64,000 nucleotides of DNA from positions 1,152,001 through 1,216,000 of the forward strand of contig CAVUDW010000002.1 of the NCBI GenBank assembly GCA_963740355.1, read 5' to 3'. The position numbers were made by a program, and so were the translations under genes. Each line of letters begins with the position of its first letter. Position 1 is the first letter of the stretch. This document shows, one piece after another, positions 10,638 to 33,302 of this stretch. Below the pieces are notes generated by a model. That model did no database searches and was not told the origin of the DNA. It saw nothing but the letters and a program-made list of their open reading frames with translations. The stretch comes from an uncultured Gemmatimonadaceae bacterium (GTDB lineage Bacteria; Gemmatimonadota; Gemmatimonadetes; Gemmatimonadales; Gemmatimonadaceae).

Positions 10638-10778
10638 TCCTCTGTTGTAACGCGAGGACTGGCAGTTTCGTCCTTGCCAGCACTGCTGGCACCCGACTTG
10701 TTTTGTCTGTTCACGTCGGGGTAGCCGCCGTGGTCGAATGTGCTGCACATCTTCCCGCCACCGCCCGGAGTAGCCGGC

Positions 10779-16310: not shown

Positions 16311-19300
16311 GCGCACAGCCTGAGGGAACGTTGACACAGCCAGCACTTGGAGAGGCAATGGAGGCGACGGGTCGCGAGGGGCGTCTGAGCGGGAAGGTGG
16401 CACTGGTGACGGGTGCCGCCGGCAACCTTGGCGGCCACATCACTCGCCACTACCTGCGCGAAGGCGCCACGGTGATCCTCACTGGTCGCGAGCGCAATCG
16501 CGTCGAGGCGGCGCGACTCGACGCCATCCAGCAGACTGGTGTTCCCGATGACCGCGCCACCATCGTGACGCTCGACGGCGCCGATCCGGTGTCGGTGCGC
16601 GCCGCCTTCGCTGAGGCGATCGCGACGCATGGGCGCATCGACATCGTGGTGAACAACGCTGGCTCGGCCGGACCGCGACAGCCGTTGCGCAACGTGCCGA
16701 TCACGCGAGACGAGCTGGATGCACTGCGCGCCGCGGGATCGACCGACAGCGAGACGGTGGGTGATGCCATGCGCAGCATTCTCGGCGTCGCCTGGCATGT
16801 GGCCAACGCCGCCGCGCGGGTGATGCAGCCGGGCGGATCGGTGATCAACATCTCGACGATCTTCTCGCGCACCGAGTACTACGCGCGCTCTCCATACGTC
16901 GTCCCGAAGGCAGCGCTGAACGCGCTCTCACGTCAGCTGTCGTTCGAGCTGGGTGAGCGTGGCATTCGCGTAAACACGATCTATCCGGGGCCGATCCGCT
17001 CCGAGCGCATCCAGACCGTGTTTGCCGCGATGGACAAGATGCGCGGCGACGAACCGGGCACCACGGCGACGAGCTTCACCGGGTTGATGTCGCTGAAGCG
17101 GGCTGGCGAGGATCCCGCGGCGGGGCGCACCTTCCCGACACCGAAGGATGTTGCGAACACCTGTGTCTTCCTTGGCAGCGACGAGTCGGCCGCGTTCAAT
17201 GGGCACGACTTCGAGGTGACGCACGGCATGTGGGTGCGCAAGGAGAGCCGCTCGGAGTTCGTCTCGCGGCCGACGATGCGCACCGTGGATGGCAGTGGAC
17301 TCTCGGTGCTGGTCGCGTGCGGCGATGCCCTCGATGACGGCCTCGCGGTGGCGCGGATGCAGGCGGAGGTGGGTGCGGCCGTGCTGCTCGGCGTGCCGCG
17401 GGATGCGGACGTGGTGGCGATTCAGTCACAGCTCGAGTCGCGGGGCCATGACGCACAGATTCGCGTCGCCCGTTTCGACCGCAGTCAGCCGGCCATCATG
17501 GAGCAGGCGCTCAGCGACGGCCCAGCCGGCGGCGGCCCGATTCATGGTGCGATCATCCTGCCGGCCTTCGGTCCTGAGCGTTTTCGCGGGCTGGTGTCAG
17601 AAGCGCCCGACGACGACATCGAGACCTTCATCGACAACGAGCTCACCGGCGCAATCGCGCTGGCGCGCACGCTGAGCCGGTACTGGAGCGCTCGCACCGA
17701 CCTGCCGCGCAATCCGCGGTTCGTGATGATGTCGAACGGCCACGACGGCGCGTACAACTCGTACGCCGACATGATTCGTGCGGCACTCGAGTCGCTCACG
17801 CGTGTGTGGCGCGACGAGACCAAGGTCGATGTGAAGCATGGGCGGCGGCAGTGGATCGAGTGGGGCAACCAGATCATCCGCTACGGCAACACCGAACCGG
17901 AGAACCGTCGCTTTGCGGCCGGGCAGGCGGCGCGCCTCATCTACACCGATCGACGCATCCCGCAGGTGAACCTGTACATGCCGAAGTCGATCGTGAAGGC
18001 GACAGGCGCCAAGCGTTCGATGGTCGGATTCATGGAAAACATCACCGGCCTCCATCTCGGCAAGGTGGCACTGATCACCGGTGGATCGGCTGGCATTGGC
18101 GGACAGGTGGCGCGATTGCTGGCGATGGGCGGCGCCCGCGTGATGCTGGTGGCACGTCGCGAAAGCGAGCTGGAAGTGATGCGCTCACAGATCGTCGGTG
18201 AACTGGAAGACGTCGGCTACAGCGGCGCGGATCGCCGCGTTCTGACGATGGCTGGTGTGGACGTGGGTGATGTCTCGACGTTGCGGCGCGCCGTGGAAGG
18301 CACGTTGGCGGCCTTCGGTCGCATCGACTACCTGATCAACAACGCCGGTGTGTCAGGGGCAGAAGAGATGGTGGTCGACATGAGCCTCGATGCGTGGCGC
18401 TATACGCTCGACGCAAACCTCGTGTCGAATTATGCCCTGCTGAAGGAAGTGGTGCCGGTGATGCGGAAGCAGGGCAGCGGCTACATCCTCAACGTGTCGA
18501 GTTACTTCGGTGGCGAGAAGCACCTCGCCGTGGCGTATCCCAATCGTGCCGATTACGCAGTGTCGAAGGCCGGCCAGCGGGCGCTGGTCGAGACGCTCGC
18601 CCGTCACCTCGGGCCGGAGATCCAGATCAATGCGATCGCGCCAGGGCCTGTCGATGGTGATCGGTTGCGCGGCCTGGGCGGCAAGCCCGGGTTGTTCATG
18701 CGACGCGGCCGGCTGATCCTCGAGAACAAGCGCCTGAACGCGATCCACGCTGCGGTGGTGAAGACGGTGCGACGCGGGTTGCGCGTGGAGGCCGTGCTGG
18801 AGCGGCTGGCGGCGAACGATGTGCCTCTGCTCGTGGCGGATGCGGACGTGCCGCGCGAACTGCGCGACCTCGCGCTCCAGTGCCAGTCGGAAGGCGCTGA
18901 GGGATCGACGTGGGGCGCGTATCTCATGACGCCATTGATTGCAGCGCACCTCGTCGATCGACTGGAGCTGGGGGGCATCTTTCTCGACGCCGGTGACTGG
19001 ATTGCACCCACCGGCGACAGCTGGCTGCGCCGGACGCCGCCTGAGGAGACGCCGTTCCTCCCTGCGGCGATGATCACACGGGAAGCGGAGAAGGTGAATC
19101 GCGGTGTGATGTCGCTGCTGCACTTGCGGCGCATGCCAACCGAGGCGGAGGTCGCGCTGGCGACCGTGTTCTTCCTTGCCGATCGCGCCGTCAGCGGCGA
19201 GACCTTCATGCCGTCAGGTGGCTTGAACCTCGAGCGCTCGATCACGGATCGCGAACTGTTCGGCAGCGCGAAGCGTGAACGACTGGATCAGTTGCGCGGG

Positions 19301-20011
19301 CGCACGGTGTGGTTGATCGGTGAGCACCTGGCGCCGCATCTCGCCGAGGCGGTGCGACAGCTGGCGGAGCTCTGCCAGGTGGGGAAGGTGGTGCTGCTGA
19401 CGCGGACGATGGCAGGCGCGGATGGCATCGAGGCGCTGGTGCCGCGCGAGCTGCGACGGGTGCTGGTGAAGATCCCGTGCGGTGACGATATCGAGAGCGG
19501 CATGAATGCGGCGCTGCAGCAGGCGGGCAAGCCGACGACCGTGATCTCGACGCCGTTTGCGCCGTTGCCACCGGCGCTGTTCGGCACCGATGGTGAAGTG
19601 CTGGACGCCGCGACGTTCCGTGAGCTGGTGGAGGTGAACCTGACGCATCACTTCCGCGTGGCCCGCAAGGCCTCGTTGATCGATGACGCGCAGCTGGTGC
19701 TGGTGTCGCCAGATGTGCCGGCCGGCGGGCATCTCGAGACGTTCTCGCTCGCGAACTTCGTGAAGACTACGATGCATGCGTTGACCGCGACGCTGGCGGT
19801 CGAGAATGAGCGCCTGGTGAACGATGTGCCGGTGAACCAGATCAACCTCACCCGTCGCGTGCGGAGTGAAGAGCCGCGCGACGAGGAGGAGACGCTGGAA
19901 GAGGTTCGACGTTTTGCCCGCGCGGTCCTGCTGGCCGGTGCGCCGCTGCCGGATGCAGAGGATTCGCGGTACCGATCACGGATTTATCGCGGGATGGCGA
20001 TCACCGTGTGA
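16307..20011 (+). CDS. mcr: Bifunctional malonyl-CoA reductase (malonyl-CoA to 3-hydroxypropionate), about 1234 aa
   Basis: Tandem SDR domains: TGAAGNLG/NNAG/YYARSPYVVPK and TGGSAGIG/NNAG/YPNRADYAVSK; C-terminus RIYRGMAITV resembles Chloroflexus MCR; ATGA overlap with pcs. Confidence 0.9.
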   Translation: MSAQPEGTLTQPALGEAMEATGREGRLSGKVALVTGAAGNLGGHITRHYLREGATVILTGRERNRVEAARLDAIQQTGVPDDRATIVTLDGADPVSVRAAFAEAIATHGRIDIVVNNAGSAGPRQPLRNVPITRDELDALRAAGSTDSETVGDAMRSILGVAWHVANAAARVMQPGGSVINISTIFSRTEYYARSPYVVPKAALNALSRQLSFELGERGIRVNTIYPGPIRSERIQTVFAAMDKMRGDEPGTTATSFTGLMSLKRAGEDPAAGRTFPTPKDVANTCVFLGSDESAAFNGHDFEVTHGMWVRKESRSEFVSRPTMRTVDGSGLSVLVACGDALDDGLAVARMQAEVGAAVLLGVPRDADVVAIQSQLESRGHDAQIRVARFDRSQPAIMEQALSDGPAGGGPIHGAIILPAFGPERFRGLVSEAPDDDIETFIDNELTGAIALARTLSRYWSARTDLPRNPRFVMMSNGHDGAYNSYADMIRAALESLTRVWRDETKVDVKHGRRQWIEWGNQIIRYGNTEPENRRFAAGQAARLIYTDRRIPQVNLYMPKSIVKATGAKRSMVGFMENITGLHLGKVALITGGSAGIGGQVARLLAMGGARVMLVARRESELEVMRSQIVGELEDVGYSGADRRVLTMAGVDVGDVSTLRRAVEGTLAAFGRIDYLINNAGVSGAEEMVVDMSLDAWRYTLDANLVSNYALLKEVVPVMRKQGSGYILNVSSYFGGEKHLAVAYPNRADYAVSKAGQRALVETLARHLGPEIQINAIAPGPVDGDRLRGLGGKPGLFMRRGRLILENKRLNAIHAAVVKTVRRGLRVEAVLERLAANDVPLLVADADVPRELRDLALQCQSEGAEGSTWGAYLMTPLIAAHLVDRLELGGIFLDAGDWIAPTGDSWLRRTPPEETPFLPAAMITREAEKVNRGVMSLLHLRRMPTEAEVALATVFFLADRAVSGETFMPSGGLNLERSITDRELFGSAKRERLDQLRGRTVWLIGEHLAPHLAEAVRQLAELCQVGKVVLLTRTMAGADGIEALVPRELRRVLVKIPCGDDIESGMNAALQQAGKPTTVISTPFAPLPPALFGTDGEVLDAATFRELVEVNLTHHFRVARKASLIDDAQLVLVSPDVPAGGHLETFSLANFVKTTMHALTATLAVENERLVNDVPVNQINLTRRVRSEEPRDEEETLEEVRRFARAVLLAGAPLPDAEDSRYRSRIYRGMAITV

Positions 20012-21109: not shown

Positions 21110-23428
21110 ATGTCGTCCCTTCGCGCCCGCTTGCTGGGCTGTCTCGCCCTGATCACCTGCGCCATCACGCCGCGACTGGCCGCGAGTCAGTCAGCGCCGG
21201 TGGATTCGCTGCGGATCCCGGGCCTCACAGCAGCGGTGGAGGTGCGGCGGGATCGTTGGGGTGTGCCGCACATCTACGCGAAGAATCAGTCCGACCTGTT
21301 TTTTGCGCAGGGTTTCGTGGCCGCGCAGGATCGCCTCTTCCAGATGGAGATGTGGCGCCGCCAGGGCGAAGGGCGATTGGCGGAAGTGCTGGGACCTGCA
21401 GCCTTTCAGCGTGATCGCGCCGCGCGACTGTTCAGCTACCGCGGCAACATGGCGCGTGAATGGGCGGCATACGGCGCGGATACGAAGTCGATCGTGACCG
21501 CGTTCGTCGCCGGCGTCAATGCGTACATCGCGCAGGCCGGTGATGCACTGCCGGTAGAGTTCACCACGCTTGGCTTCAAGCCTGAGCCGTGGAGCATCAC
21601 GGTGCCACTCGCCCGCGCGACGGGCTTGAGCGGCGTCTCGAATGGCTCGAGCGAGGTGCTGCGTGCGCAACTCGTCGCGGCCCTCGGCGCCGCAAAGGTC
21701 GACTCGTTGCTCCCGGCCGATCCGGTGCGGCGGCTCGATCCCGCGCCGGGGCTGGATCTGGCTGGCATCGGCGCCGCCTCACTGGGCGGCTTCGAAGGCA
21801 CCTTCGGCGATGTGGCGTACAACCGCATCGAAGGGTCGAACAACTGGGTCGTGAGCGGTGCCAAGACGGCGACGGCCAAGCCGATTCTCGCCAACGATCC
21901 ACACCGCGTGATCACCAATCCGGCGGTGCGGTATCTCACGCATCTCGTGGCACCGGGCTGGAATGTCATCGGCGCTGGTGAACCGGCAGCGCCGGGGGTG
22001 GCGATCGGACACAACGATCGGATCGCCTTCGGCCTCACTGTCGTCGGCATGGATCAGCAGGACGTCTACGTCGAGGCGCTCGGCAGCTGTCCCGGCGCGG
22101 CAGCCGGCACGCTCGGTTGCTACAAGCACCGCAGCGCCATGCGCGCGATCAGCACCCGTATCGACACGATTCGCGTCAAGGGTGAATCACCGCGGGTGGT
22201 CACGCTGCAGTTCACCGTGCATGGGCCGATCGTGTCGATCGACAGCGCGCGCAAGCGTGCCTTTGCCATTCGCTCGGTGCACTCCGAGCCGGGCACGGCG
22301 AGTTACCTCGGCTCGCTGGCGATGGATCGTGCGCGCAACTGGGCACAGTTCGAAGCGGCGATGACACGCTGGTTGATGCCGAGTGAGAACATGATCTACG
22401 CCGATGTCGATGGAAACATCGGCTGGATTGCCGCTGGCCTTATGCCGAAGCGGGCCTGGAGTGGCCTGCTGCCGGTGCCGGGTGACGGTGCGTTCGAATG
22501 GACGGGCTTCGTTCCGGGCCGACAGTTGCCGCGCGCATACAACCCGAGCTCTGGCTTCATCAACACCTCGAACAACAACATCCTGCCGAAAGGCTACACG
22601 ACGCCGATTTCATACGAATGGGCGACGCGCTACCGGGTGGATCGTGTGCGCGATGTGCTGAGCCAGTCGAAGCGATTCACGATCGAGGATTTTGCGCAGC
22701 TGCAGCACGATGACCTGTCGTTGCTGGCAGGTGTGCTGGTACCGTCGCTGAAGACTGCGGCAGAGCGCGCGGGACTGGCGACGCGCGCCGACGTCAGCAT
22801 GCTCACGTCGTGGAACCAACGGATGTCGCGCGACCAGGTGGCTCCGACCCTTTTCTCGGCATGGGCGCCCGCGATCTATCGTCGGGCGATCGCGCGCGAA
22901 CTGGTCGGCCTGGGCGATGCGGCGAGAATGCTCGCCACGCGCCCGTCGTATGCCTGGCTGGAGCGGTATCTGCAACTGCACCAGGGGATGCCAGGAACCG
23001 ACTCGATCGTGCTCGGCGCCCTCGATGAGGCGACGGCCGAGGTGAACCGCCGGTTCGGCGCCGATCAGTCGGCATGGCGCTGGGGCACGGTGCATACCGC
23101 GCTGTTCAAGCACCCGCTGACGGCAGCCTATGACCTCAAGCCGGCGTCGCGGAGCGGTGACGGCAACACGGTCAACGTGACTGGCGGTGCAAACTTCAAG
23201 CAGACAGCCGGCGCCTCGTTCCGGGAAGTGATCGATCTCTCCGACTTCGACAAGTCGATCGTCACGAACGTGCCTGGCCAGTCGGCGGACCCGAGAAGTC
23301 CGCACTACTCCGACCTGCTCACGCTCTGGGCCGACGACAAGTACTTCCCGCTCGTGTACTCGCGCGAGCGGGTGGTGGCGGAGACGGAGCGGGTGACGTG
23401 GCTGATGCCGCGCAAGGGCGCGCGCTGA
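21110..23428 (+). CDS. Secreted penicillin acylase family (Ntn hydrolase) protein
   Basis: Signal peptide; RDRWGVPHIYA, AQDRLFQM, autocleavage GSNNW, LANDPH, PGQS..P.SPHY.D. Confidence 0.9.
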   Translation: MSSLRARLLGCLALITCAITPRLAASQSAPVDSLRIPGLTAAVEVRRDRWGVPHIYAKNQSDLFFAQGFVAAQDRLFQMEMWRRQGEGRLAEVLGPAAFQRDRAARLFSYRGNMAREWAAYGADTKSIVTAFVAGVNAYIAQAGDALPVEFTTLGFKPEPWSITVPLARATGLSGVSNGSSEVLRAQLVAALGAAKVDSLLPADPVRRLDPAPGLDLAGIGAASLGGFEGTFGDVAYNRIEGSNNWVVSGAKTATAKPILANDPHRVITNPAVRYLTHLVAPGWNVIGAGEPAAPGVAIGHNDRIAFGLTVVGMDQQDVYVEALGSCPGAAAGTLGCYKHRSAMRAISTRIDTIRVKGESPRVVTLQFTVHGPIVSIDSARKRAFAIRSVHSEPGTASYLGSLAMDRARNWAQFEAAMTRWLMPSENMIYADVDGNIGWIAAGLMPKRAWSGLLPVPGDGAFEWTGFVPGRQLPRAYNPSSGFINTSNNNILPKGYTTPISYEWATRYRVDRVRDVLSQSKRFTIEDFAQLQHDDLSLLAGVLVPSLKTAAERAGLATRADVSMLTSWNQRMSRDQVAPTLFSAWAPAIYRRAIARELVGLGDAARMLATRPSYAWLERYLQLHQGMPGTDSIVLGALDEATAEVNRRFGADQSAWRWGTVHTALFKHPLTAAYDLKPASRSGDGNTVNVTGGANFKQTAGASFREVIDLSDFDKSIVTNVPGQSADPRSPHYSDLLTLWADDKYFPLVYSRERVVAETERVTWLMPRKGAR

Positions 23429-23488
23429 TCCACGTCACCCACTGGAACATCAGTCCTGGTGCGTGCTTTCGTGTCAAGCCGTTCCTTC

Positions 23489-23510
23489 TGTCAGACCCGG
23501 GGGCGAAGTT
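23489..23510 (+). promoter_or_regulatory. Putative PafBC-dependent (RecA-NDp-like) promoter upstream of addB
   Basis: TGTCAG-ACCCGGGGGC-GA-AGT-T versus the actinobacterial TGTCRG-N10-TA-N3-T; one mismatch, exact spacing. Confidence 0.55.
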
Positions 23511-23580
23511 GAAGCATGCCCTCTACCTGTGCGCGCCATGATACCCATGCCCCCGGTTCGCCGAGGGTGAGCACTTCGCG

Positions 23581-26500
23581 ATGCCCGTGACCGATGCGCG
23601 CAATTCGCGGCTGCTGGAGTCGATCGTGCGCGTGAACGCGACACACCCGCACACGCGCAAGCGATTGCTGGGCGTGGACGTGAATCATGGCCGCGAGTTG
23701 TTGCTCGCCCTGGCGCGTCAGACGGGTGGCTGGGTTGGCTGGGAGGCCACCACGTTGCGCAGTATCGCTGACGACCTGTCCTTCGTGGCGCTCAGTGAGC
23801 GTGGCCTGCGCATCGCATCAGACGTCGAGCTGGCAGCGCTGGTGGCGGCCGCGTTCGAGCGTGTGATCGAGGCCGAGTTGGTGAGCCCGTCCTTTGCCGC
23901 GATGGCGCAGCACCGCGGTTTCCGCACCGCGCTGCAGGATTCGATCCTCGAGTTGCGGATGGCAGGCGTGACGGCATCGGAGCTTCGGGCCGCGTCAGAG
24001 GCCGGAAGTCCCGCGGCGCAGTTGGTGCCGGTGCTCCACGCCTACGACGCGGCATTGGTAGAGGCAGGGGTCGTCGATCCGGCCGGTGTCTTTCAGGTCG
24101 CGCTGGAGGCGTTTGCCGATGAAGCGCCATTCGTACTCGATGGTGTCACCGCACTGGTCCCCACACTCACCACGCGAGGGGTGGCCGGCGCATTGGTGCG
24201 CCGACTGGTCGATGCCGGCGCAATCCTGCTCGACGTCGATCGTGCCATGGCACGCAGTGCGAGTGAAATTGCAGGCGCCGCTGACGATTCTTTGCTGGCC
24301 CGACAAGACGATGACTTCGCGCGCTCGGTGCTCGGCTGGTCTCTGGCCACTCGCGTACCAGAGGCATCGCACCCGCAGTACGATGCATCACTGACGACGG
24401 TGGACCTGTTCGCGGCCTCGAGTCCGAGCGAAGAGTTGCGCGAGATCTGTCGGCGTGTGATGGGTGAACAACTGCGTTGGGACGACGTCGAGATCGCGAC
24501 CACCGACCCCGATACGTACGGAATCGCGCTCGATGCGTTGTGTCAGCAGCTGGGTATTGGCGCCACGATGCTGAAAGGCTTGCCGCTGGTTCGCACGCGG
24601 ATCGGTCGTGCGCTGGAGCGATGGTTTGCCTGGCTGGATAACGGCCTTCCCGCCGACGTGCTGCGTCAGGCGCTCGAGGCGGGTGAGATCTCGGTGAAGG
24701 CCACCAACATCGATGCGCACGACCTGGCACAGGAACTTCGCTCGCAGCGCGTGGGGTGGGGCAGGGCGCGCTACGACGACTTGCTGGCGCGGCTGGCTGC
24801 CGAGCATGCGGCGGTAGCGCTGGCTCGAGATGAGGACGAGACGCTCACGGAGCATCAGGTCCGGGCTGCAGCAAAGCTGCAGCGCGAGCGCGGCTTGGCG
24901 GATGTCGTGCGTGCGATGCTCGCGATCACGCCGCCGGTGCCTGAGCGCGGCAGTCACCTCGACGTGCCGACGACAGCGGCGCGTCTCGCCGCGGCCACAC
25001 TCCTCTACATCGCGCGGCTGGAACTGCGCGACGGCGCCGAGGAGCAGACCATGGAACGTCTCACGCGGCGACTGGGCCGATTGGCGGAGCTCGAGGAGGA
25101 CGAGGTCGACTTTGCCAGCGCGCTTGCGGGGCTGCGCGAGTCGCTCGCCGATTTACGCGCTTGGCCGCCGACTGGCATGGCGCGCAAGTCGTATCGCGCC
25201 GACGGTGGGATGTTGCACCTGACCGACCTGCCACATGCTGGTTCCAGTGGTCGGCGAAGGCTGTTCGTTACCGGCCTCGATGCGGAACGCACCAGTGGTA
25301 CGAGTCGACAGGATCCGCTGGTACCGGATGCCGTGCGTCGTGGTGTTGGCCGCGACCGGATGCCCGATACCGCCGATCGTCGGGCGCAGTGGCTGGAGCG
25401 GCTTGGCGTGTCACTGGCCTCGTTGCGTGGTCGCGTGACGCTGTCGTGGTCCACGCGCGGCGCTGATGGTCGCGATGCTGGCCCGTCGCCGCTGCTCCTG
25501 CAGGTGCAACGCGTTCTGGAGCACGATGCCACGCTGACCTTTGAACAGCTTCGACATCGCGTCTTGCCACCCGCCTGTGCCGTTCCGTCGACGTCCGGAG
25601 ACAACAGTGCACTGCTCGACGCACGAGATGTGTGGCTGCAGGCGATCGGTGGTGGAGCTCTGCTGCTCGATGCGACGGAGACGGTGCAGAGTGCATTCCC
25701 GATGCTCGATTCGGGATTGACGGCGCTTGACGCTGCGCAGTCAGGCGTGCTCTCCGCATTCCATGGTCTCGTTCCGGATGCTGGCCTTCGGCTCGATCCA
25801 ACGCGTTCCGATGCCAATGCGCTCTCACCGTCCGGCCTGGAAACACTGGGGAAGTGCCCGCTGCAGTGGTTCTACAGGTATGGACTTGGACTTCGCGCGC
25901 CGCAGGACCCGTCCTACGACACCGAGGCGTGGCTCGACGCCCTACAGCGTGGCAGCCTGCTCCACGAAGTCTTCGAGGCATTCGTCAAGGAACACATGGG
26001 CGCGCAGCAGCTGATTCTCGAACCGTCGGCGGACGATTCACTCAACACCATCGCGAAACGGACCATCGACCGCTGGCGCGCGCTCGTACCACCGCCCAGC
26101 GACAGTGTCTTTGCCGCCGAGTCGGCAGAGCTGCTCCGTGCCGCGCGGGCATTCCTCCAGATGGAGCGCGAGGCACTGCTCGGTGGCGGAGACGCCGAAT
26201 GGACGGCGATCGAATACGGGTTCGGCGAAACGACGCGTGCGACCTATCGCCTCGCTGACGGTCGCGAGATTTCGCTGCGCGGGCGCGCCGATCGCATCGA
26301 CCGGTTCGCCGACGGCTCGCTGCGCGTGGTTGACTACAAGACCGGCAAGCCTGCGAGCTACCAACCGGACGCGAAGAAGGCGGCATACAACGGCGGGCGC
26401 CTGTTGCAACCTGCACTCTACGCTGACGCGATTGGTGCTGCCCTGCAACAGTCGGTCCGGCGATTCGAGTACCGCTTTCCGACCGACCGAGGCGGCAACG

Positions 26501-26772
26501 CCATCGTTCCGTTCGACGCGGATGCCCTTGTCGATGCGCGCGGTGTGGTCACGTCGTTGGTGGATCACGTGCGCACTGGACGATTCCTGCCAACGACTGA
26601 TCCGCACGATTGTCGGCATTGCGATCACGCCCCCATCTGCCGTGTGTCGGTTTCGGATTTTGCGGTCGGGTCACCGCGCGCCGAGTGGGCGGCCGAGTTC
26701 GCGCTGTCGATACCGGAATACGACTCGATGCGTGCCCGTCGCGGCGAAACTGATGTGGAGGACACGGAATGA
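23581..26772 (+). CDS. addB: AddB-like subunit: degenerate helicase plus C-terminal PD-(D/E)XK nuclease with Fe-S cysteines
   Basis: LSPSGLE..GKCP, RGSLLH, LRGRADRID, VVDYKTG, LQPALY, CRHCDHAPIC; no Walker A motif. Confidence 0.85.
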   Translation: MPVTDARNSRLLESIVRVNATHPHTRKRLLGVDVNHGRELLLALARQTGGWVGWEATTLRSIADDLSFVALSERGLRIASDVELAALVAAAFERVIEAELVSPSFAAMAQHRGFRTALQDSILELRMAGVTASELRAASEAGSPAAQLVPVLHAYDAALVEAGVVDPAGVFQVALEAFADEAPFVLDGVTALVPTLTTRGVAGALVRRLVDAGAILLDVDRAMARSASEIAGAADDSLLARQDDDFARSVLGWSLATRVPEASHPQYDASLTTVDLFAASSPSEELREICRRVMGEQLRWDDVEIATTDPDTYGIALDALCQQLGIGATMLKGLPLVRTRIGRALERWFAWLDNGLPADVLRQALEAGEISVKATNIDAHDLAQELRSQRVGWGRARYDDLLARLAAEHAAVALARDEDETLTEHQVRAAAKLQRERGLADVVRAMLAITPPVPERGSHLDVPTTAARLAAATLLYIARLELRDGAEEQTMERLTRRLGRLAELEEDEVDFASALAGLRESLADLRAWPPTGMARKSYRADGGMLHLTDLPHAGSSGRRRLFVTGLDAERTSGTSRQDPLVPDAVRRGVGRDRMPDTADRRAQWLERLGVSLASLRGRVTLSWSTRGADGRDAGPSPLLLQVQRVLEHDATLTFEQLRHRVLPPACAVPSTSGDNSALLDARDVWLQAIGGGALLLDATETVQSAFPMLDSGLTALDAAQSGVLSAFHGLVPDAGLRLDPTRSDANALSPSGLETLGKCPLQWFYRYGLGLRAPQDPSYDTEAWLDALQRGSLLHEVFEAFVKEHMGAQQLILEPSADDSLNTIAKRTIDRWRALVPPPSDSVFAAESAELLRAARAFLQMEREALLGGGDAEWTAIEYGFGETTRATYRLADGREISLRGRADRIDRFADGSLRVVDYKTGKPASYQPDAKKAAYNGGRLLQPALYADAIGAALQQSVRRFEYRFPTDRGGNAIVPFDADALVDARGVVTSLVDHVRTGRFLPTTDPHDCRHCDHAPICRVSVSDFAVGSPRAEWAAEFALSIPEYDSMRARRGETDVEDTE

Positions 26773-29700
26773 TCGAGGCAGCGCCGGATCAGGCAGCGCG
26801 AGACCGTATTCAGACGGACCTGGCCACCAACCTGCTCGTCGAGGCGGGCGCGGGTTCGGGAAAGACAACCGCACTCGTCGCTCGGTTGCTCGAGCACGTG
26901 CTGAACGGAACGCCGGTCGAGCAGCTGGCGGCCGTGACGTTCACCCGCAAGGCCGCCGACGAACTGCGCGAGCGTTTCCAGATGCAGCTGGAACGGGTCG
27001 TGCGCGAGGGTGCTGGCAACAACGAACGAAACGAGCGCTGCGCGACTGCGTTGCGTGACCTCGAGCGGGCCTTCCTTGGCACGATTCACTCGTTCTGCGC
27101 GCGGCTGCTGCGTGAGCGCCCCATCGAGGTGGGCCTCGATCCTGATTTCGAGGAGATCGCCGACATCGAGGACGAGTCGCTGACGCGTGAATTCTGGCGC
27201 GACTGGATCGATGCGGCGCGACGACTCGACGCAGAGGACGTGCAGGCCCTCTACGCATGCGGGCTCGACCCGTCGGACCTGCACGACGCCTTCGCACGAG
27301 CCAAGACGTTCCACGACGTGGCGTTTCCAGCGCCACCCGTGGACATGCCGGACGTCGCCGCGTGTATGCAGCAGCTGTCGCTGTTGCTCGATCGCGCACG
27401 ACAGATGATGCCAGCGGTCCTGCCACCGGAAGGTCCGGATAAGCTGATGCAGCTGGTGCAGCGGCTCCAGTTCCATCGCAGTGTTGCCGACTGGAGCGAG
27501 CCGGTGACCGGATGTGCGCTGCTGGAGTCACTCACTGAATCGCAGATGGCGGTCGTGCAGAAGCGATGGAGTGCCGACAAGAGTGGCAAGGAGGCGGCCA
27601 AGCTCCTGGGCGAGGAGTTCGTTGCACTGCTCACGGACCGTGCGGCACCGCTGATTCGTGCATGGCGCGAGTATCGCTACCCCGTCGTGATGCGCGTCCT
27701 GCAACGCGCCGTGGGAGATTTCGCGGAGCAACGACACACCTCCGGGCGCCTCGGCTTCGATGACCTCCTGCTGCTCTGTGCCCGCCTGCTGCGGGAGCAT
27801 CCGGTGGTGCGAAACGAACTGGGTGAGCGCTATCGATATCTGCTCGTCGACGAGTTCCAGGACACCGATCCAGTGCAGGCGGAGGTATGCCTGTTGCTCT
27901 CCTCGGACGCCGCGCAAGGCAATGATTGGCAGGCTGTCACGCCACGTCCCGGCGCGCTCTTCGTGGTGGGCGACCCGAAACAGAGCATCTACCGCTTCCG
28001 CCGTGCTGACATCCAGATCTACGAACGGGTGAAGCAGCGATTCGAGAGTTTCGGTGCCACGTTGTCGCTGACGTCGAATTTCCGGTCGACGGCGGCGATC
28101 GGTGCGCTGGTGAACGCACACTTCGAGCAGGTGTTTCCGGCGGTGGCGAGTGGCCAGCAAGCGGCGTTCAGTCCACTCATCGCGACACGTGATGCGTCCG
28201 GCGCACCGACCGAAGGGATCAAGCGATACGTCGTGCAGTGGACGTCCGGCGGCGCGGAGGCCGTCGTGGCCGCAGACGCCACGCTCGTCTCGGCGTGGAT
28301 CGCATCCCGCATCGCGGCAGGTGAACTGCCTGGCAACTTCCTCGTGCTCACCGGTCGCAAGGCTCCGATCGCCAGTTATGCACGCGCATTGGCCGAGCGC
28401 AACATCCCGGTGACGACGACAGGCGCAAACCTGACGCAGGAACATGAACTGCTCGAAGTGCTGGTGGTGTTGCGCGCGCTCGCAGATCCGGGTAACGGGG
28501 TGCTGGTTGCAGCCGCGCTGGAAGGACTGTTCTTCGGGCTGAGTCCGGCCGATCTGTACGCGGCGCGGCAGGCCCACGTCGCGTTCTCGATTGCCGCGCC
28601 AGTGGTGGGCGACACACTTCCAGCGCAGCGCGCGCTGTCGGTCCTCCGACGCTGGTGGGAGTTCTCGCGTCAGCATCCGACCGATGTGCTGCTCGAGCGC
28701 ATCTTCGATGAGACCGGCTTGTTGTTCCACGCGGCCGGCTCGGTGCTTGGCGACGCACGAGCCGGTGCACTGCTGCACCTGGTCGAGGCCGTGCGCGCCG
28801 AGGCGAGTGTGGGGCGTAGCGGTTTGATCGAGGCCATGGAACTACTGCAGACGCTGCTCGATGGTGATGCGGACGATGCACCGTTGCGGCCGGGCCGCTC
28901 CGATGCCGTGCGGATCATGAACCTGCACAAGGCGAAGGGGCTCGAGGCGGAGATCGTGATTCTCGCCGCACCGACGGACCTGCGGGAACATGAGCCCGAC
29001 GTACACGTCACCCGCGCAGCACATGGCGCAGCCACTGGTGGCCTGCTCATTACACGCGGCAGTGGTAACCAGAAGCAGCGGCTGGCGCAGCCTGTCGGCT
29101 GGGATGAGATGCAGGCCACCGAATCGCTGTTCCAACGCGCCGAGGCGGAGCGGCTGCGGTACGTCGCGACGACGCGCGCAAAACGAGTGCTGGTGGTCGC
29201 GCAGGCCGAGAAGATCGGTACGTCGTCCAAGCCCGATGCCTCGATGTGGCGTCCGCTGGCCAAGACGGTCGACGCGATGGCCGGTGACCCGCTGGAAATC
29301 GCTGTGCGTCCCGCGGCAGGTCGGCTCACGCTCGACATCGGCGCTGATGCGCTCGTAGGTCGCGCAGAAGCGGCGCGCGAGCGAGTTGCGGCGGCGCGCA
29401 CACCGTCGCTGATCGTCGAGACGGTCACTGGTACGGTCAAGGGTGATAACGCCTACGCTGAGCCGGTGCCGAACCGGTCACGGCTCGAGGGTCGAAAGTG
29501 GGGCACCGCAGTGCATCGCTGCATCGATGCCCTGGTCCGCGGACGGACCGGTGCGGGCTTGCACAGCTTCGCCCGGGCCGTGCTCAGCGACGAGCGGCTC
29601 GATGCCAGTGTCTTGCCACGTCTGCTGCAGCTGCTCGACGACGTCGAGCGCTCCGAGACCTGGCGCACCCTTCGGGACGGTGGCGTGCCGCTGTCGGAAC

Positions 29701-29945
29701 TCTCGGTGATGCGCGCCGAGACTCGCGATGATCGCGTGGTCGTGACGGAAGGGGTGATCGACCTCGCCGTGGAGACCACGGCAGGCTGGCGCGTCGTCGA
29801 CTGGAAGTCTGACGTGACTGATGTGGTGGGCTGGGCCGATCGGGTGGTGAAGTACGAGGCGCAGGTCGCACGGTACGCCGAGTTGTTGGCGCAGGTGACG
29901 GGTCGACCAGGCGTTGGTGTGATCGAGAGGGTCGGTCAGGACTGA
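26769..29945 (+). CDS. addA: AddA-like UvrD helicase-nuclease
   Basis: EAGAGSGKT, TFTRKAA, TIHSFC, VDEFQDT, VGDPKQSIYRFRRAD, NFRS, LHKAKGLE, YVATTRA; nuclease GVIDL..VVDWK; ATGA overlap with addB. Confidence 0.9.
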   Translation: MIEAAPDQAARDRIQTDLATNLLVEAGAGSGKTTALVARLLEHVLNGTPVEQLAAVTFTRKAADELRERFQMQLERVVREGAGNNERNERCATALRDLERAFLGTIHSFCARLLRERPIEVGLDPDFEEIADIEDESLTREFWRDWIDAARRLDAEDVQALYACGLDPSDLHDAFARAKTFHDVAFPAPPVDMPDVAACMQQLSLLLDRARQMMPAVLPPEGPDKLMQLVQRLQFHRSVADWSEPVTGCALLESLTESQMAVVQKRWSADKSGKEAAKLLGEEFVALLTDRAAPLIRAWREYRYPVVMRVLQRAVGDFAEQRHTSGRLGFDDLLLLCARLLREHPVVRNELGERYRYLLVDEFQDTDPVQAEVCLLLSSDAAQGNDWQAVTPRPGALFVVGDPKQSIYRFRRADIQIYERVKQRFESFGATLSLTSNFRSTAAIGALVNAHFEQVFPAVASGQQAAFSPLIATRDASGAPTEGIKRYVVQWTSGGAEAVVAADATLVSAWIASRIAAGELPGNFLVLTGRKAPIASYARALAERNIPVTTTGANLTQEHELLEVLVVLRALADPGNGVLVAAALEGLFFGLSPADLYAARQAHVAFSIAAPVVGDTLPAQRALSVLRRWWEFSRQHPTDVLLERIFDETGLLFHAAGSVLGDARAGALLHLVEAVRAEASVGRSGLIEAMELLQTLLDGDADDAPLRPGRSDAVRIMNLHKAKGLEAEIVILAAPTDLREHEPDVHVTRAAHGAATGGLLITRGSGNQKQRLAQPVGWDEMQATESLFQRAEAERLRYVATTRAKRVLVVAQAEKIGTSSKPDASMWRPLAKTVDAMAGDPLEIAVRPAAGRLTLDIGADALVGRAEAARERVAAARTPSLIVETVTGTVKGDNAYAEPVPNRSRLEGRKWGTAVHRCIDALVRGRTGAGLHSFARAVLSDERLDASVLPRLLQLLDDVERSETWRTLRDGGVPLSELSVMRAETRDDRVVVTEGVIDLAVETTAGWRVVDWKSDVTDVVGWADRVVKYEAQVARYAELLAQVTGRPGVGVIERVGQD

Positions 29946-30025
29946 CACTGCGCCAGAGAAAGTATCAAAAACGTATGAAGCTGTAGTGCGCGATCTCGAC
30001 CTCCACGTCCTTCTCCGTCCATCTG

Positions 30026-32248
30026 ATGCCTGTCGCCACACCACCGAACGATCTGGGGAACGCCGACTTCGAGGGCGACGAGTTCGCCTACCGACCCTCG
30101 GGACCGCGCAATCCGCGACTCGCTCGCTGGATCGACCTGCTCGCTGCGCTCCTCGTTCGCAATATGCCCGCGACCTTCGACGAGCTGGTCGCCTCGGTGC
30201 CGGAGTACCAGCTCAAGTCCGACGCAATCGATGCTGAGGTGGATGCTGCGGCGAAGAAGAAGCTGGGTGAGTCCTTGAAGCGGGCCTTCGAGCGTGACAA
30301 GGATGAACTCCGCGCGCTCGGTGTCGCCATCGAGTCGTCGAAGGACGAGGGAGGCAACAGCGGCGGCGCCTATCGATTGCGGCGTGCCAACTTCTACCTA
30401 CCATACTTGTGTATCGCGGTGCCGGGAGCCGCACCGACGACGCCCGCGCGTATCGATCGCGACGGGTACAAGGCGCTCGAATCGCTGCTGCTGGAGCCGG
30501 ACGAACTGGAAGCGATCGTCGATGCCGCGGCCTCGGTGCGACGGCTCGGTGATCCACTATTGCAGTCCGATGTGGACTCTGCGATGCGAAAGTTGGCGAT
30601 CGACCTACCGTTGGATGTCTCCGAGCCGTCCGCTGATGTACCGCGCATCGTGGCCGCGCGGGCACAGCCGGACGCTGAGGTATTCGCGGTCCTGGGTGAG
30701 GCGATGCGCGCCCGAAAGGTGGTGACCTTCACCTACCTCGCCATGAGCACGGGCAAGCGCGATGAGCGCTCCGTCGAGGCGTACGGTCTCTTCTTCCTCA
30801 GTGGGCACTGGTACCTCGCCGCCCGGGATCAGACGCGCGGCGAGATGCGAAACTTCCGGCTCAATCGCATCAGCGGCGCGAAGGTGAACACCAAGTCGAA
30901 GCAAACGCCGGACTACACCATTCCATCCACCTTTCGCCTGCGCGATCACGCTCGCTCACGGCATGTGTGGGAGCTCGGCGATGGCGATGCCGATGAGGTG
31001 GTGGTGGAGTTCCTTGGCGTCACAGGGCCCGCGCTGGCGGCGGCTGGGCTTGGCGATCCGGTGGAGGGCGTGACGGGTTCGCGTCGCTTCAGCGTGCGAC
31101 GCACGGACAGCTTCGCGCGCTGGATTCTTTCCTTCGGTGGTGATGCCGTGGTGCGCTCGCCAGAATCGCTTGCGGCGCATGTGACCCAGCTCGCTGCGGC
31201 GACGCGCGCGATCTACGCGAATGAAGCTCCCACGGAGATGCCCGCACCCAGCGCTGCTGCCAGCGCCGCGTCCGCCGCTCGCATTCCGTGGCAACCGCGC
31301 GGGGCCGCAGCGCAGCTTCGACGAATCCTCCTCGTCGTTCCGCAGATCGCCGACGGCGAAGAACATTCGCTGCAGGAGGTCGCCGGTCGAATTGGTTCCG
31401 ATGTCGATACGCTCACCAGTGATCTCCATTCGCTGGTGGACCGGTACGACCTGCCGGCGGGCTTCGTGGAGGGAGTGCAGATCTTTCTCGAGCCGGATCG
31501 GGTTTCTGCGATGTCCAATCACCTGCGTCGCCCGATGCGCCTGACTGGCAACGAGCTGTGTGCGCTGGAACTGGGGCTGGCGGTGCTTCGCTCGCAGCGA
31601 CCGCCAGACGAGTACGCCCTGCTCGACCGGGCGCGGACGCGGCTCCAGAAGGTCATCGCACAACTGCCCGGTGATCCGATCCCGGACTCACTCTACAACG
31701 TCTCCGTCGGTGAGTACGGCAGCACGACATTCCTTCCGGTGGTCCGGCACGCGCTACGCAATCGCACCAAGCTTCGGCTCGGGTATCGGAAGTCAGGCAG
31801 CGCGACGACTGACGAGCGCGTGGTGTGCCCCTATGCGCTGGTCGCGGCCAGTGGCATGCTCTACCTCATCGCGTATTGCGACCGAAGTGCCGGCATCCGG
31901 GTGTTTCGCATGGATCGTGTGCAACTGGCGGAACCGACCGATCAATCGTTCGCGGCGCCAGCCGAGTTTTCCGTGGACGACGTGATGAAGGACGGACGCG
32001 TGTTCAGTGGCGACACCCCTGAGATCATGCTGGTGCGCTACTCGCCACGGATCGCCGGATGGATTGCAGAGCGCGAGGGACGCACGCTCGAGGCCGACGG
32101 AAGTTTGGTCCTCGAGCACCCGCTGGCGGACATGGAATGGGCGGTGCGACATGTCCTGCAGTACGGCCCGGAGGCGGAGGTGCTGCAGCCAGCGTCCTTG
32201 CGCCAGCGTCTGCGGGATCGACTCGATCGAGTAGTGAACGCGATGTGA
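30026..32248 (+). CDS. pafBC: Fused PafB-PafC-type transcriptional regulator (two HTH-WYL-WCX modules), 740 aa
   Basis: PafB-like FERDKDELRALG and HWYL...FRLNRI; Ala/Pro linker at about 31220-31300; PafC-like LRRILLVVP...LTSDL, LRRPMRLT and LYLIAYC...FRMDRV; each half ends in a WCX-like segment. Confidence 0.8.
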   Translation: MPVATPPNDLGNADFEGDEFAYRPSGPRNPRLARWIDLLAALLVRNMPATFDELVASVPEYQLKSDAIDAEVDAAAKKKLGESLKRAFERDKDELRALGVAIESSKDEGGNSGGAYRLRRANFYLPYLCIAVPGAAPTTPARIDRDGYKALESLLLEPDELEAIVDAAASVRRLGDPLLQSDVDSAMRKLAIDLPLDVSEPSADVPRIVAARAQPDAEVFAVLGEAMRARKVVTFTYLAMSTGKRDERSVEAYGLFFLSGHWYLAARDQTRGEMRNFRLNRISGAKVNTKSKQTPDYTIPSTFRLRDHARSRHVWELGDGDADEVVVEFLGVTGPALAAAGLGDPVEGVTGSRRFSVRRTDSFARWILSFGGDAVVRSPESLAAHVTQLAAATRAIYANEAPTEMPAPSAAASAASAARIPWQPRGAAAQLRRILLVVPQIADGEEHSLQEVAGRIGSDVDTLTSDLHSLVDRYDLPAGFVEGVQIFLEPDRVSAMSNHLRRPMRLTGNELCALELGLAVLRSQRPPDEYALLDRARTRLQKVIAQLPGDPIPDSLYNVSVGEYGSTTFLPVVRHALRNRTKLRLGYRKSGSATTDERVVCPYALVAASGMLYLIAYCDRSAGIRVFRMDRVQLAEPTDQSFAAPAEFSVDDVMKDGRVFSGDTPEIMLVRYSPRIAGWIAEREGRTLEADGSLVLEHPLADMEWAVRHVLQYGPEAEVLQPASLRQRLRDRLDRVVNAM

Positions 32249-32259
32249 CGGTGACGCGT

Positions 32260-32294
32260 CATCGCGCCAGTCCGAACATCCGACTGGCGCGATG
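32260..32294. terminator. 13-bp-stem hairpin between convergent pafBC and fasciclin genes
   Basis: CATCGCGCCAGTC-9 nt-GACTGGCGCGATG; no U-tract. Confidence 0.5.
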
Positions 32295-32307
32295 GCACAT
32301 GTCTCGA

Positions 32308-33117
32308 TCAGCGCCCGCTGGTGACTTCCATCATCCCGCTGATGCTGCGCCGCGCGTCGTCGAGCCCACCGCGCAGGGTGAAGGCGCGATCCCGGACGCT
32401 GCCGCTGGTGTTGCCGAGCGCGGCGCGCAACGCGCGACGACCGTCATCGGGGACCACGTTGCCGAGCGCGAGCAGCCCCTTCGACGTAATTTCGTAGATG
32501 GCGACCGTGGCGTCGGGTTGCCCATCGTTGAACAGCGGCACGCCGCGCTGAATGGCGAGGTCGATCAGTTCGAGCGCGCTCCGGCCGGCACCGCTGCCGT
32601 TGCTGGCAGCACGTTCCGCCGGCAACAACACTCGATCGATCACATGGATCAGGCCATTGCTGGCCGGCACGTCGGCGATCCGCACGACCGCGTCGTTGAT
32701 CCGGAGCTGGTCACCGCTGGTCGTGATGCGCACACTCTGGCCCGCCACCGTCTCGGCGCTATTTACGCCTCGGGCTTGTGCGGCGGTCACGCGGCCTGCG
32801 ATCACGTGATAGGTGAGGATCGTGCGGAGCTTGTCGCGATTCTCCGGCTTCAGGAGATCCTGCACCGTGCCATTGGGCAGCCGCGCGAACGCCTCGTCGG
32901 TCGGGGCGAAAAGTGTGTACGGTCCGCGGCCGAGCAGCGTCTCGGTGAGGCCGGCGGCATCGACGGCGGCAAGCAAGGTGGTAAACTGTCCGGCAGTCTT
33001 GGCGACCTGCGGAATCGACGGGCTGCGTGACGGGTGCTGGGCGGTGAGCGGTGATGCGCAGGCCAGCAGCAGGCCAGCGGCGAGTGTCGGTAGTGTTGGC
33101 GAGAACGTGACACGCAT
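32308..33117 (-). CDS. Secreted fasciclin (FAS1) domain protein with extra C-terminal helical domain
   Basis: Signal peptide; FTTLLAAV, YTLFAPTDEAF, ILTYHV, NGLIHVIDRVL; GGAG RBS before ATG 33117. Confidence 0.88.
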   Translation of the reverse strand: MRVTFSPTLPTLAAGLLLACASPLTAQHPSRSPSIPQVAKTAGQFTTLLAAVDAAGLTETLLGRGPYTLFAPTDEAFARLPNGTVQDLLKPENRDKLRTILTYHVIAGRVTAAQARGVNSAETVAGQSVRITTSGDQLRINDAVVRIADVPASNGLIHVIDRVLLPAERAASNGSGAGRSALELIDLAIQRGVPLFNDGQPDATVAIYEITSKGLLALGNVVPDDGRRALRAALGNTSGSVRDRAFTLRGGLDDARRSISGMMEVTSGR

Positions 33118-33179
33118 GGAGTGGCTCCGTGAGGCGAGATGAGGTGCAGCAAAGGGACGGGACATCGTGATGCCCTGCG

Positions 33180-33210
33180 GTTCGCCGGGTGGCAGGAACC
33201 GGATGCAGCC
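33180..33210 (-). promoter_or_regulatory. ECF-sigma promoter for the fasciclin gene
   Basis: Minus strand GGCTGCATCCG-N15-CGAAC, same elements and spacing as the plus-strand copy. Confidence 0.7.
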
Positions 33211-33228
33211 TGTCTCGGCGGCCAATCG

Positions 33229-33259
33229 GGCTGCATCCGAAACCATCGGCGCGACGAAC
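33229..33259 (+). promoter_or_regulatory. ECF-sigma autoregulatory promoter for the sigma/anti-sigma operon
   Basis: GGCTGCATCCG-N15-CGAAC upstream of the sigma gene. Confidence 0.7.
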
Positions 33260-33302
33260 TGCTTCAGCATTCAGGCATTGACGAGGCCGATTTGGAGCAG
33301 GC

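Follow-up and report, generated by a model that had tools for sequence, protein, structure and literature searches.

The 64,000-nucleotide stretch of an uncultured Gemmatimonadaceae genome analysed here (hereafter the window; C2:1152001-1216000 of the host genome, G000) carries three co-oriented genes, addB, addA and pafBC, which probably form one transcription unit read from a PafBC-dependent hybrid promoter. The predicted promoter lies at 23489..23510 on the plus strand, where sequence, matrix score and genome-wide rank point to it, and is followed on the same strand by genes encoding an AddB-type subunit of 1063 amino acids (aa) (23581..26772), an AddA-type subunit of 1058 aa (26769..29945) and, after an A+T-richer spacer of 80 nucleotides (nt) (29946..30025), a fused PafBC regulator of 740 aa (30026..32248). 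The data also raise a wider proposal, to which we give slightly less than an even chance: PafBC sigma adaptation would operate across phyla, and PafBC of Gemmatimonadota would be a Pup-independent, self-amplifying sensor of single-stranded DNA (ssDNA), driving resection operons, itself and nuclease/ADP-ribose conflict genes from promoters of the form TGTCA[G/C]ACCCC-N6-nAnnnT. The host is a Gram-negative bacterium of soil type, and its genome comprises 5.45 Mb in 5 contigs, with 65% G+C and 94.5% completeness. Other G numbers denote other genomes and L numbers fetched loci; gene calls and starts, in the loci as in the host, come from our own crude caller.

A predicted hybrid promoter ahead of addB

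The site reads TGTCAG-ACCCGGGGGC-GA-AGT-T, as a preliminary description of this DNA had pointed out, with its 5' end 92 nt and its 3' end 70 nt ahead of the addB ATG at 23581. Its -26 element, TGTCAGACCC (23489-23498), stands at a distance of 10 nt from a -10-like hexamer, GAAGTT (23505-23510), and transcription is predicted to start near 23517, about 7 nt past that hexamer. Judged by its letters, the site has the layout expected of a PafBC-type hybrid promoter, namely a GTC-containing -26 element, 10 nt, the A...T of a -10 element, and no -35 element. A scan of 23300-32500 found no sigma-70 consensus promoter.

The weight of the argument comes from other genomes. We fetched 73 loci around pafBC relatives; 21 bear actinobacterial titles, and the remaining 52 (0.71 Mb), including 3 titled merely 'uncultured bacterium', were treated as Gemmatimonadota. 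Just ahead of pafB(C) or its neighbours in these other genomes an extended consensus recurs, cTGTCA[G/C]ACCCC-N6-nAnnnT. On both strands of the 52 loci the 9-mer TGTCA[GC]ACC occurs 35 times, 31 of them in intergenic DNA, which makes up 12.7% of the sequence; A is found at +17 in 30/31 and T at +21 in 28/31 of these intergenic 9-mers, neither base being required by the search. The seed pattern for the motif had demanded both ACC and the A/T pair, and the 9-mer test lifted the A/T demand alone. A 26-nt matrix was built from 31 seed sites, all outside the host genome, whose -10 elements begin with T (44%), C (32%) or G (23%). At 14 bits or more it matches the 52 loci 42 times, in 39 cases in intergenic DNA and mostly 20-90 nt ahead of a gene on the same strand. 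The spacing of the conserved A and T equals that of the mycobacterial motif tGTCgg(N10)tA(N3)T, the 3' part of which is described as the -10 element (PMC8635444). The existence of a phylum-wide hybrid promoter of PafBC type is strongly supported by this recurrence.

Scored with that matrix, which holds no host sequence, the site before addB reaches 16.1 bits. Across the 10.9 million positions scanned in the host genome there are 6 matches of at least 16 bits, all six intergenic, and the addB site is the sixth of them; a first-order Markov null of intergenic DNA yields 0.65 such matches, and never more than 2 in any of 20 runs. Simple arithmetic from this null gives a chance of about 7.5e-5 for a match of at least 16 bits on the correct strand within the 152-nt spacer ahead of addB. 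Intergenic TGTCA[GC]ACC followed by A at +17 and T at +21 was found four times in the host genome, the addB site included, while none of the 32 coding 9-mers carries the A/T pair. The addB site also has TGTCAGACCC in common with the seed consensus, and it is very probably one of the predicted phylum-wide PafBC-type promoters.

The fused regulator and the resection enzyme

The tandem-WYL gene that the preliminary description had placed 80 nt past addA and in the same orientation is indeed found there, and its 740-aa product matches the Pfam families HTH_PafC (residues 430-541), WYL (twice) and WCX (twice); no other gene of the host genome matches WYL. Two modules composed of a helix-turn-helix (HTH), a WYL and a WCX domain follow each other in the single chain, collinear over residues 180-735 with the best solved relative, the naturally fused PafBC of A. 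aurescens (Arthrobacter; 6sj9, E 5e-37). The protein can be divided into a PafB-like half (about residues 1-414) and a PafC-like half (about 415-740), with HTH, WYL and WCX in each. That the halves would group with PafB and PafC, respectively, was an expectation of the earlier work which held on two counts. Residues 64-389 match the PafB chain of M. smegmatis (7p5x_AY, E 2.4e-14) and residues 429-736 its PafC chain (7p5x_AX, E 6.9e-12). In a tree of 34 halves, the 17 N-terminal halves separate from the 17 C-terminal halves with support of 100/99. The input of this tree consisted of 17 fused proteins cut at the column of residue 415, 11 of Gemmatimonadota type and six distant ones, which came without taxonomy and are presumed to be of actinobacterial type from two JGI names.

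The residues on which function would depend are kept. R86 and R90, in the stretch 'kRafeRdk', align with R46 and R50 of PafB and are invariant in 13 sequences; in M. smegmatis, these two arginines are reported to read both guanines of the GTC triplet (PMC8635444). Both halves retain the WYL-loop R-x-F-R and the WYL tyrosine, in alignment with the loops of 6sj9. R275, F277, R278 and Y263 in the first half, and R625, F627, R628 and Y613 in the second, are invariant or nearly so in the 13-sequence alignment; R275, F277, R278, R625, F627 and R628 are, like the arginine pair, fully invariant. Loop and tyrosine are presented as functionally important in a 2019 paper, in which the fused PafBC class is described as actinobacterial (PMC6789036). 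On this sequence evidence the 740-aa protein is a genuine PafBC, and its family membership is firm.

The preliminary description had taken the host for a non-actinobacterial, diderm organism, which is borne out: the close homologs of the regulator and their loci are titled Gemmatimonadaceae, Gemmatimonadales, Longimicrobiales or Gemmatimonadota, and TonB-dependent receptors occur in the host genome. It had likewise seen no pafA or pup in the window, and this extends to the genome as a whole, 94.5% complete, in which Pup_ligase has no match. The regulator gene, then, does not lie beside pafA in a Pup-proteasome locus. Among 201 genomes of the phylum, each at least 90% complete, 56 contain a PafBC relative and 6 a gene of the Pup-ligase family, and no genome has both. 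Adjacency to pafA is a feature of the actinobacterial context and not a property of the PafBC protein. In the positive genomes, the relative mostly takes the form of two adjacent and often overlapping genes, pafB and pafC; full-length PafBC in a single frame was found in 4 of the 56 (G000, G061, G069 and G250). Many PafBC proteins of fused length occur in metagenomes, despite this low count.

The two genes between the promoter and pafBC are coupled, as had been noticed before, by a 4-nt overlap of the addA start with the addB stop, and the nuclease motifs of both subunits, also claimed earlier, can be read intact in the translations. AddA matches Pfam UvrD-helicase (E 3e-54), UvrD_C and PDDEXK_1, and direct reading reveals GAGSGKT, DEFQD and, towards the C-terminus, GVIDL...VDWK. 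AddB matches PDDEXK_1 (E 7e-37) and displays GRADRID...VDYK together with cysteines C759 and C1011-X2-C1014-X5-C1020; no Walker A was found in it by direct reading, nor did Pfam detect a UvrD motor. The motif names attached to these stretches are those we presume to apply. AddA combines a superfamily 1 (SF1) UvrD-like motor, with Walker A and DExQD, and a C-terminal RecB-family nuclease, and AddB a C-terminal RecB-family nuclease and a four-cysteine pattern, which we take to be the AddB iron-sulfur pattern and from which cluster binding may be expected. The NCBIfam equivalog models for AddA, AddB and RecB all score far below their cut-offs (addB_alphas 54.8 against 486.5; addA_Gpos 229.7 against 707.65). 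The host pair is consequently AddAB-type by its architecture, in a divergent lineage outside the NCBIfam equivalog families. No second AddAB-like pair was found in the host when the L004 pair was used as query, which matched the window genes and one UvrD-like gene. Scans of the family and of metagenomes yielded no near relative with the same addB-addA-pafBC operon; a relative, P0002, is 91% identical, and the metagenome scan supplied two further addB loci (L121 and L122) of 46-48% identity, neither with a motif site.

It is plausible, from the sequence between them, that pafBC is co-transcribed with addBA, because the spacer at 29946-30025 contains no terminator, no sigma-70 consensus and no remarkable fold. 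A promoter and terminator scan found no terminator-like hairpin between addA and pafBC, and the spacer folds no better than its shuffles (z -0.15). An internal promoter could be hidden in this A+T-richer segment.

The steps by which the unit might work can be proposed as follows. The PafB-type HTH would read GTC in the -26 element (TGTCAGACCC), and RNA polymerase with the housekeeping sigma would use the -10-like GAAGTT with no -35, in the 'sigma adaptation' geometry known from mycobacteria. Binding of ssDNA to both WYL domains would switch PafBC on, and the operon would then raise the levels of the AddAB end-resection enzyme and of PafBC itself, closing a positive loop because resection yields ssDNA. 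We infer that PafBC activates and does not repress, that ssDNA is what it binds, that the host employs sigma adaptation, that pafBC and addBA share a transcript, and that the feedback loop operates.

Linkage across the phylum and the predicted regulon

In the other genomes, the extended motif tracks pafBC. Tracing the closely spaced same-strand genes back from pafB(C), we found a site ahead of the operon in 27 of the 41 loci that could be evaluated, and several of the 14 misses are artefacts of start-codon choice or gaps in the gene caller (L011, L022, L026 and L038). As a control we took genes that stand first in operons at distances above 6 kb from pafBC; a site precedes 2 of 62. Sites also precede pafB(C) in G022, G069 and G250.

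Helicase-nuclease genes lie three genes or fewer from pafBC in 18 of the 52 loci, many of the others having short flanks. AddB-like plus AddA-like pairs are present in L003, L004, L012, L016, L019, L028, L032, L045, L046 and L071, and single members of such pairs in L015 (AddA-like), L036 (a PDDEXK nuclease) and L054 (addA and a cut addB). RecC-RecB-RecD is encoded in L002, an SF1 helicase of about 1140 aa with an RNase_H_2-superfamily domain in L017, L042 and L043, and a convergent addA fragment in L013. An upstream site was detected for 10 of the 16 helicase-nuclease operons tested near pafBC, in several arrangements: site, rmuC, addB, addA and pafBC in L016; site, two small genes, addB and addA, divergent from pafBC, in L012; site, pafB, pafC, addB and addA in G022; and site, AddB-like, AddA-like, pafB and pafC in L003, titled Gemmatimonas aurantiaca. 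The closest locus, L001 (66% identity), has the amidase gene followed by a TGTCAG site and pafBC, with addBA absent between them. The window is one instance of what the sequences describe as a general pattern, a predicted PafBC-type promoter followed by cargo genes and pafBC.

The earlier expectation that the motif would be conserved before addB orthologs held in part for the pafBC-linked operons and failed for addB not linked to pafBC, where none of four unlinked orthologs (G072, G054, L121 and L122) has a site; in G072, pafBC is located on another contig than addB. The DNA immediately upstream of the distant addB orthologs of L016, L071 and L012 likewise holds no site, those of L016 and L012 being found one or two genes further upstream.

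Another recurrent neighbour is a gene of about 420-430 aa with a von Willebrand A domain, which follows a high-scoring site (24-30 bits) beside pafBC in seven loci: L012:7061-8353(-), L018:2803-4053, L021:3303-4601, L026:8480-9775, L027:4865-6124, L031:8949-10214(-) and L049:3499-4770. By its position this gene is probably a conserved part of the regulon. Large Ser/Thr protein kinase genes also occur a few genes from pafBC in L002, L008, L022, L035, L043 and L052, with TPR repeats in L002, L008 and L052 and PD40 repeats in L043; the kinase gene of L052 has a weak site (14.3 bits) 170 nt upstream.

In the host genome, the predicted regulon is small, with about 4-9 sites. The four full intergenic sites precede addB, an ADP-ribosylglycohydrolase-phosphatase gene, a gene of 268 aa whose match to REase-ARP (E 1.2e-5) is below the cut-off, and a rhamnosidase gene 368 nt on. 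Other high-scoring sites precede a recJ operon, a sigma gene of extracytoplasmic function (ECF) type, a small gene with an EVE/NOV_C gene, and HSDR_N/NOV_C genes; the one ahead of the ECF-like sigma gene is the second-best in the genome (21.5 bits). The regulon reported for mycobacterial PafBC includes RecBCD, AdnAB and two sigma factors, and in M. smegmatis comprises more than 150 genes (PMC8223512).

Two of the four full sites, those before the ADP-ribosylglycohydrolase gene with PTP-SAK and the 268-aa REase-ARP-like gene, lie outside the window in G000:C3:2533432-2557000 (loci L119 and L120). This region has the look of a decayed island, with split YgjP-like genes, fragments of HsdR and N6-methylase (type I restriction-modification), a kinase-SWIB gene and an HD-domain gene. 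In other genomes, ARPP-1 (ARG and rhodanese-phosphatase-associated) genes at L037:7522-8607 and L052:1015-2154 follow sites of 30.7 and 28.0 bits, respectively. Together with the ARG-phosphatase target of the host, these ARPP-1 targets point to ADP-ribose conflict systems under the same predicted control.

The host genome has three LexA matches and also encodes RecA. Ordinary -35/-10 pairs with 17-nt spacers stand upstream of recA (G000:C1:90050-90165) and of lexA (G000:C2:2522166-2522273), and in both promoters (T)CTTCGG repeats coincide with the -10 hexamer or follow it; they may represent a LexA operator or another element.

Alternative readings, related systems and surroundings

Several observations weigh against an addB-addA-pafBC unit under PafBC control, and against its generality. 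The loose pattern TGTCRG-N10-NA-N3-T occurs five times in the window where 2.8 are expected, and 16 of 100 shuffles reach five. The -10 hexamer of the addB site is GAAGTT and not TAnnnT, with the G that begins a minority (23%) of seed sites, and the other five of the six top matches in the genome all outscore it. The 52 loci from which the motif was derived are relatives, and so not independent samples. G010, of the same genus, has a pafBC of 67% identity directly behind its amidase gene (penG), lacks addBA and shows no clear site. The addB-addA-pafBC operon of L071 has no upstream site; to these are added the four unlinked addB orthologs already mentioned. AddB of this type was found in just 6 of 80 other genomes of the family, at identities of 51% or less. 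The preliminary description had looked to recA, uvr, ruv and ssb as further carriers of the motif, a prospect that failed: recA has a TTGACG-17-TATTCT promoter and no PafBC-type site upstream, and no uvr, ruv or ssb appears among the annotated genes downstream of intergenic matches of at least 12.9 bits. Likewise, the 20 other genes behind matches to the loose pattern in the host genome are non-repair genes (TonB receptors, a chaperonin, an Nramp transporter, etc.).

The same parts might serve chiefly against phage or foreign DNA, PafBC sensing the ssDNA of infection or plasmid entry and inducing conflict genes along with AddAB, which would break down linear DNA, a reading that we hold to be unlikely but the strongest of those set beside ours. 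The host genes under the motif are in part of defence or conflict type (the ADP-ribosylglycohydrolase with PTP-SAK, the weak REase-ARP match, EVE/NOV_C and HSDR_N/NOV_C), similar genes follow in other loci (ARPP-1 in L037 and L052, DUF2779 in L049), and two of the four full sites sit among type I restriction-modification fragments. The distribution is patchy for pafBC (56/201) as for this addAB type (6/80), and WYL regulators beside defence systems are known (PMC9122601 and PMC11662680). However, recJ, rmuC, RecCBD and AddAB equally serve in ordinary DNA repair, the operon in the window is not flanked by genes of phages or mobile elements, and the roles in defence and repair are mutually compatible. 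Rather improbable is a further arrangement of these elements, in which the motif would be an operator and the protein a repressor released by ssDNA in the manner of CapW/BrxR, and not an activator working by sigma adaptation. WYL repressors that sense ssDNA do exist (PMC11662680), the motif overlaps the core promoter, a place fit for a repressor too, and the in vitro system for PafBC used the actinobacterial partners RbpA and CarD (PMC11804915), which the host presumably lacks. Against this stand the lack of a palindrome in the motif, its fixed 10-nt spacing to the -10-like A/T, the absence of a -35 consensus, which should leave the promoter weak without an activator, and the orthology of the protein, with its PafB and PafC halves, to the activator PafBC.

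Chance could also have placed the addB site, addBA and pafBC then having ordinary unrecognised promoters and the motif being real only elsewhere in the phylum. An early reading of this kind was adopted because the loose pattern was at chance level, strict matches were few (the mycobacterial TGTCRG-N10-TAN3T occurs 13 times in the host genome, five of them upstream of genes) and the downstream genes were non-repair; it was dropped after the extended motif had been found in the pafBC loci of other genomes. The low rank and G-start of the site, the 0.65 false matches expected genome-wide and the missing motif in G010 and before unlinked addB orthologs still speak for chance. Nevertheless, the site is placed as in other genomes, upstream of an operon holding pafBC, where the Markov-based estimate for the spacer and strand makes a random match rare; it has TGTCAGACCC in common with the seed consensus, and it belongs to the four intergenic full sites that contrast with none among coding 9-mers. 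We consider coincidence improbable. Least credible is that an alternative sigma factor of ECF type, and not PafBC, uses the motif as its promoter. The second-best host site does precede an ECF-like sigma gene, and ECF sigma genes are often self-controlled. The spacer between -35 and -10 elements in the sigma-70 family is nevertheless 15-20 nt, far above the 10 nt that separate the upstream element from the -10-like hexamer here, and the motif tracks pafBC in 27 of the 41 loci; no sigma gene was seen beside pafBC in the annotated loci. Moreover, sigma genes are likewise controlled by mycobacterial PafBC (PMC8223512).

The predicted PafBC-driven unit shares much with the actinobacterial systems (M. 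smegmatis 7p5x and 9fnd, A. aurescens 6sj9): the HTH-WYL-WCX module twice, PafB then PafC, the DNA-reading arginine pair, the WYL-loop R-x-F-R and the WYL tyrosine, a target made of a GTC-containing element 10 nt before the A...T of a -10, and a predicted regulon that touches end-resection enzymes and a sigma factor. Unlike them, it belongs to a diderm phylum, in which Pup ligase is found in none of the 56 PafBC-positive genomes, its -26 element is longer, TGTCA[G/C]ACCCC, and its -10 is loose at the first base. Autoregulation is implied by the motif ahead of pafBC itself, and helicase-nuclease genes are physical neighbours of pafBC. The predicted regulon is small, with no site at recA, and the N half of the host protein, which has low identity to 6sj9, is about 80 residues longer.

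As in the AddAB enzymes of Bacillus and the alphaproteobacteria, two subunits of about 1060 aa are encoded by overlapping genes, AddA with a UvrD-like motor and a RecB nuclease, AddB with a C-terminal RecB nuclease and a C...CX2CX5C cluster; NCBIfam scores far below the cut-offs and the patchy occurrence set the host pair apart from them, and the want of a UvrD motor detectable by Pfam sets its AddB apart from AdnA. DriD of Caulobacter is described as an ssDNA-activated, SOS-independent WYL activator beside a LexA system. Our protein resembles it as an inferred WYL-domain activator in a LexA-bearing genome, whereas DriD consists of one HTH-WYL-WCX chain, acts as a homodimer and has its own target site, in contrast to the PafB-PafC pseudo-heterodimer and PafBC-type hybrid promoter proposed here. 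With CapW/BrxR it has in common that an HTH-WYL-WCX regulator is encoded beside its targets, here predicted ones, some of conflict type. Some regulators of the CapW/BrxR type reportedly sense ssDNA; they are described as single-chain homodimeric repressors, whereas the paralogous halves and the promoter geometry seen here point to activation.

Activation by PafBC has so far been studied in mycobacteria, treated as actinobacterial and tied to the Pup-proteasome locus, and a full-text literature search retrieved no paper joining 'PafBC' or 'WYL domain' with 'Gemmatimonad'. A second phylum now appears to keep a regulator of two paralogs, the residues with which it reads DNA and the unusual -26/-10 geometry together without the pupylation system. 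This raises the questions of whether sigma adaptation depends on RbpA, CarD or similar partners from actinobacteria, why the link of PafBC is with the proteasome in one phylum but with resection nucleases in the other, and how a positive ssDNA loop would be shut off without proteasomal clearance. The host offers a regulon of about 4-9 predicted promoters, smaller than the more than 150 genes of M. smegmatis, in which such questions might be approached.

As for the surroundings of the operon, no phage or mobile-element genes flank it. Its upstream neighbour is a penicillin-amidase-family gene (21110..23428, plus strand; Pfam) and its downstream neighbour a fasciclin-domain gene on the opposite strand (32308..33270, minus), both given as context. 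Elsewhere in the host genome, identical stretches of about 50 nt occur at G000:C4:95264 and G000:C5:22631, and of 26 nt at G000:C2:1271936 and G000:C2:2312357; both cases may reflect overlapping contig ends or repeat copies. Upstream of the amidase gene, the window holds two very long co-oriented open reading frames of 1856 and 1242 aa (10740-20011), and the 1242-aa gene at the matching position in L001 has two short-chain dehydrogenase domains.

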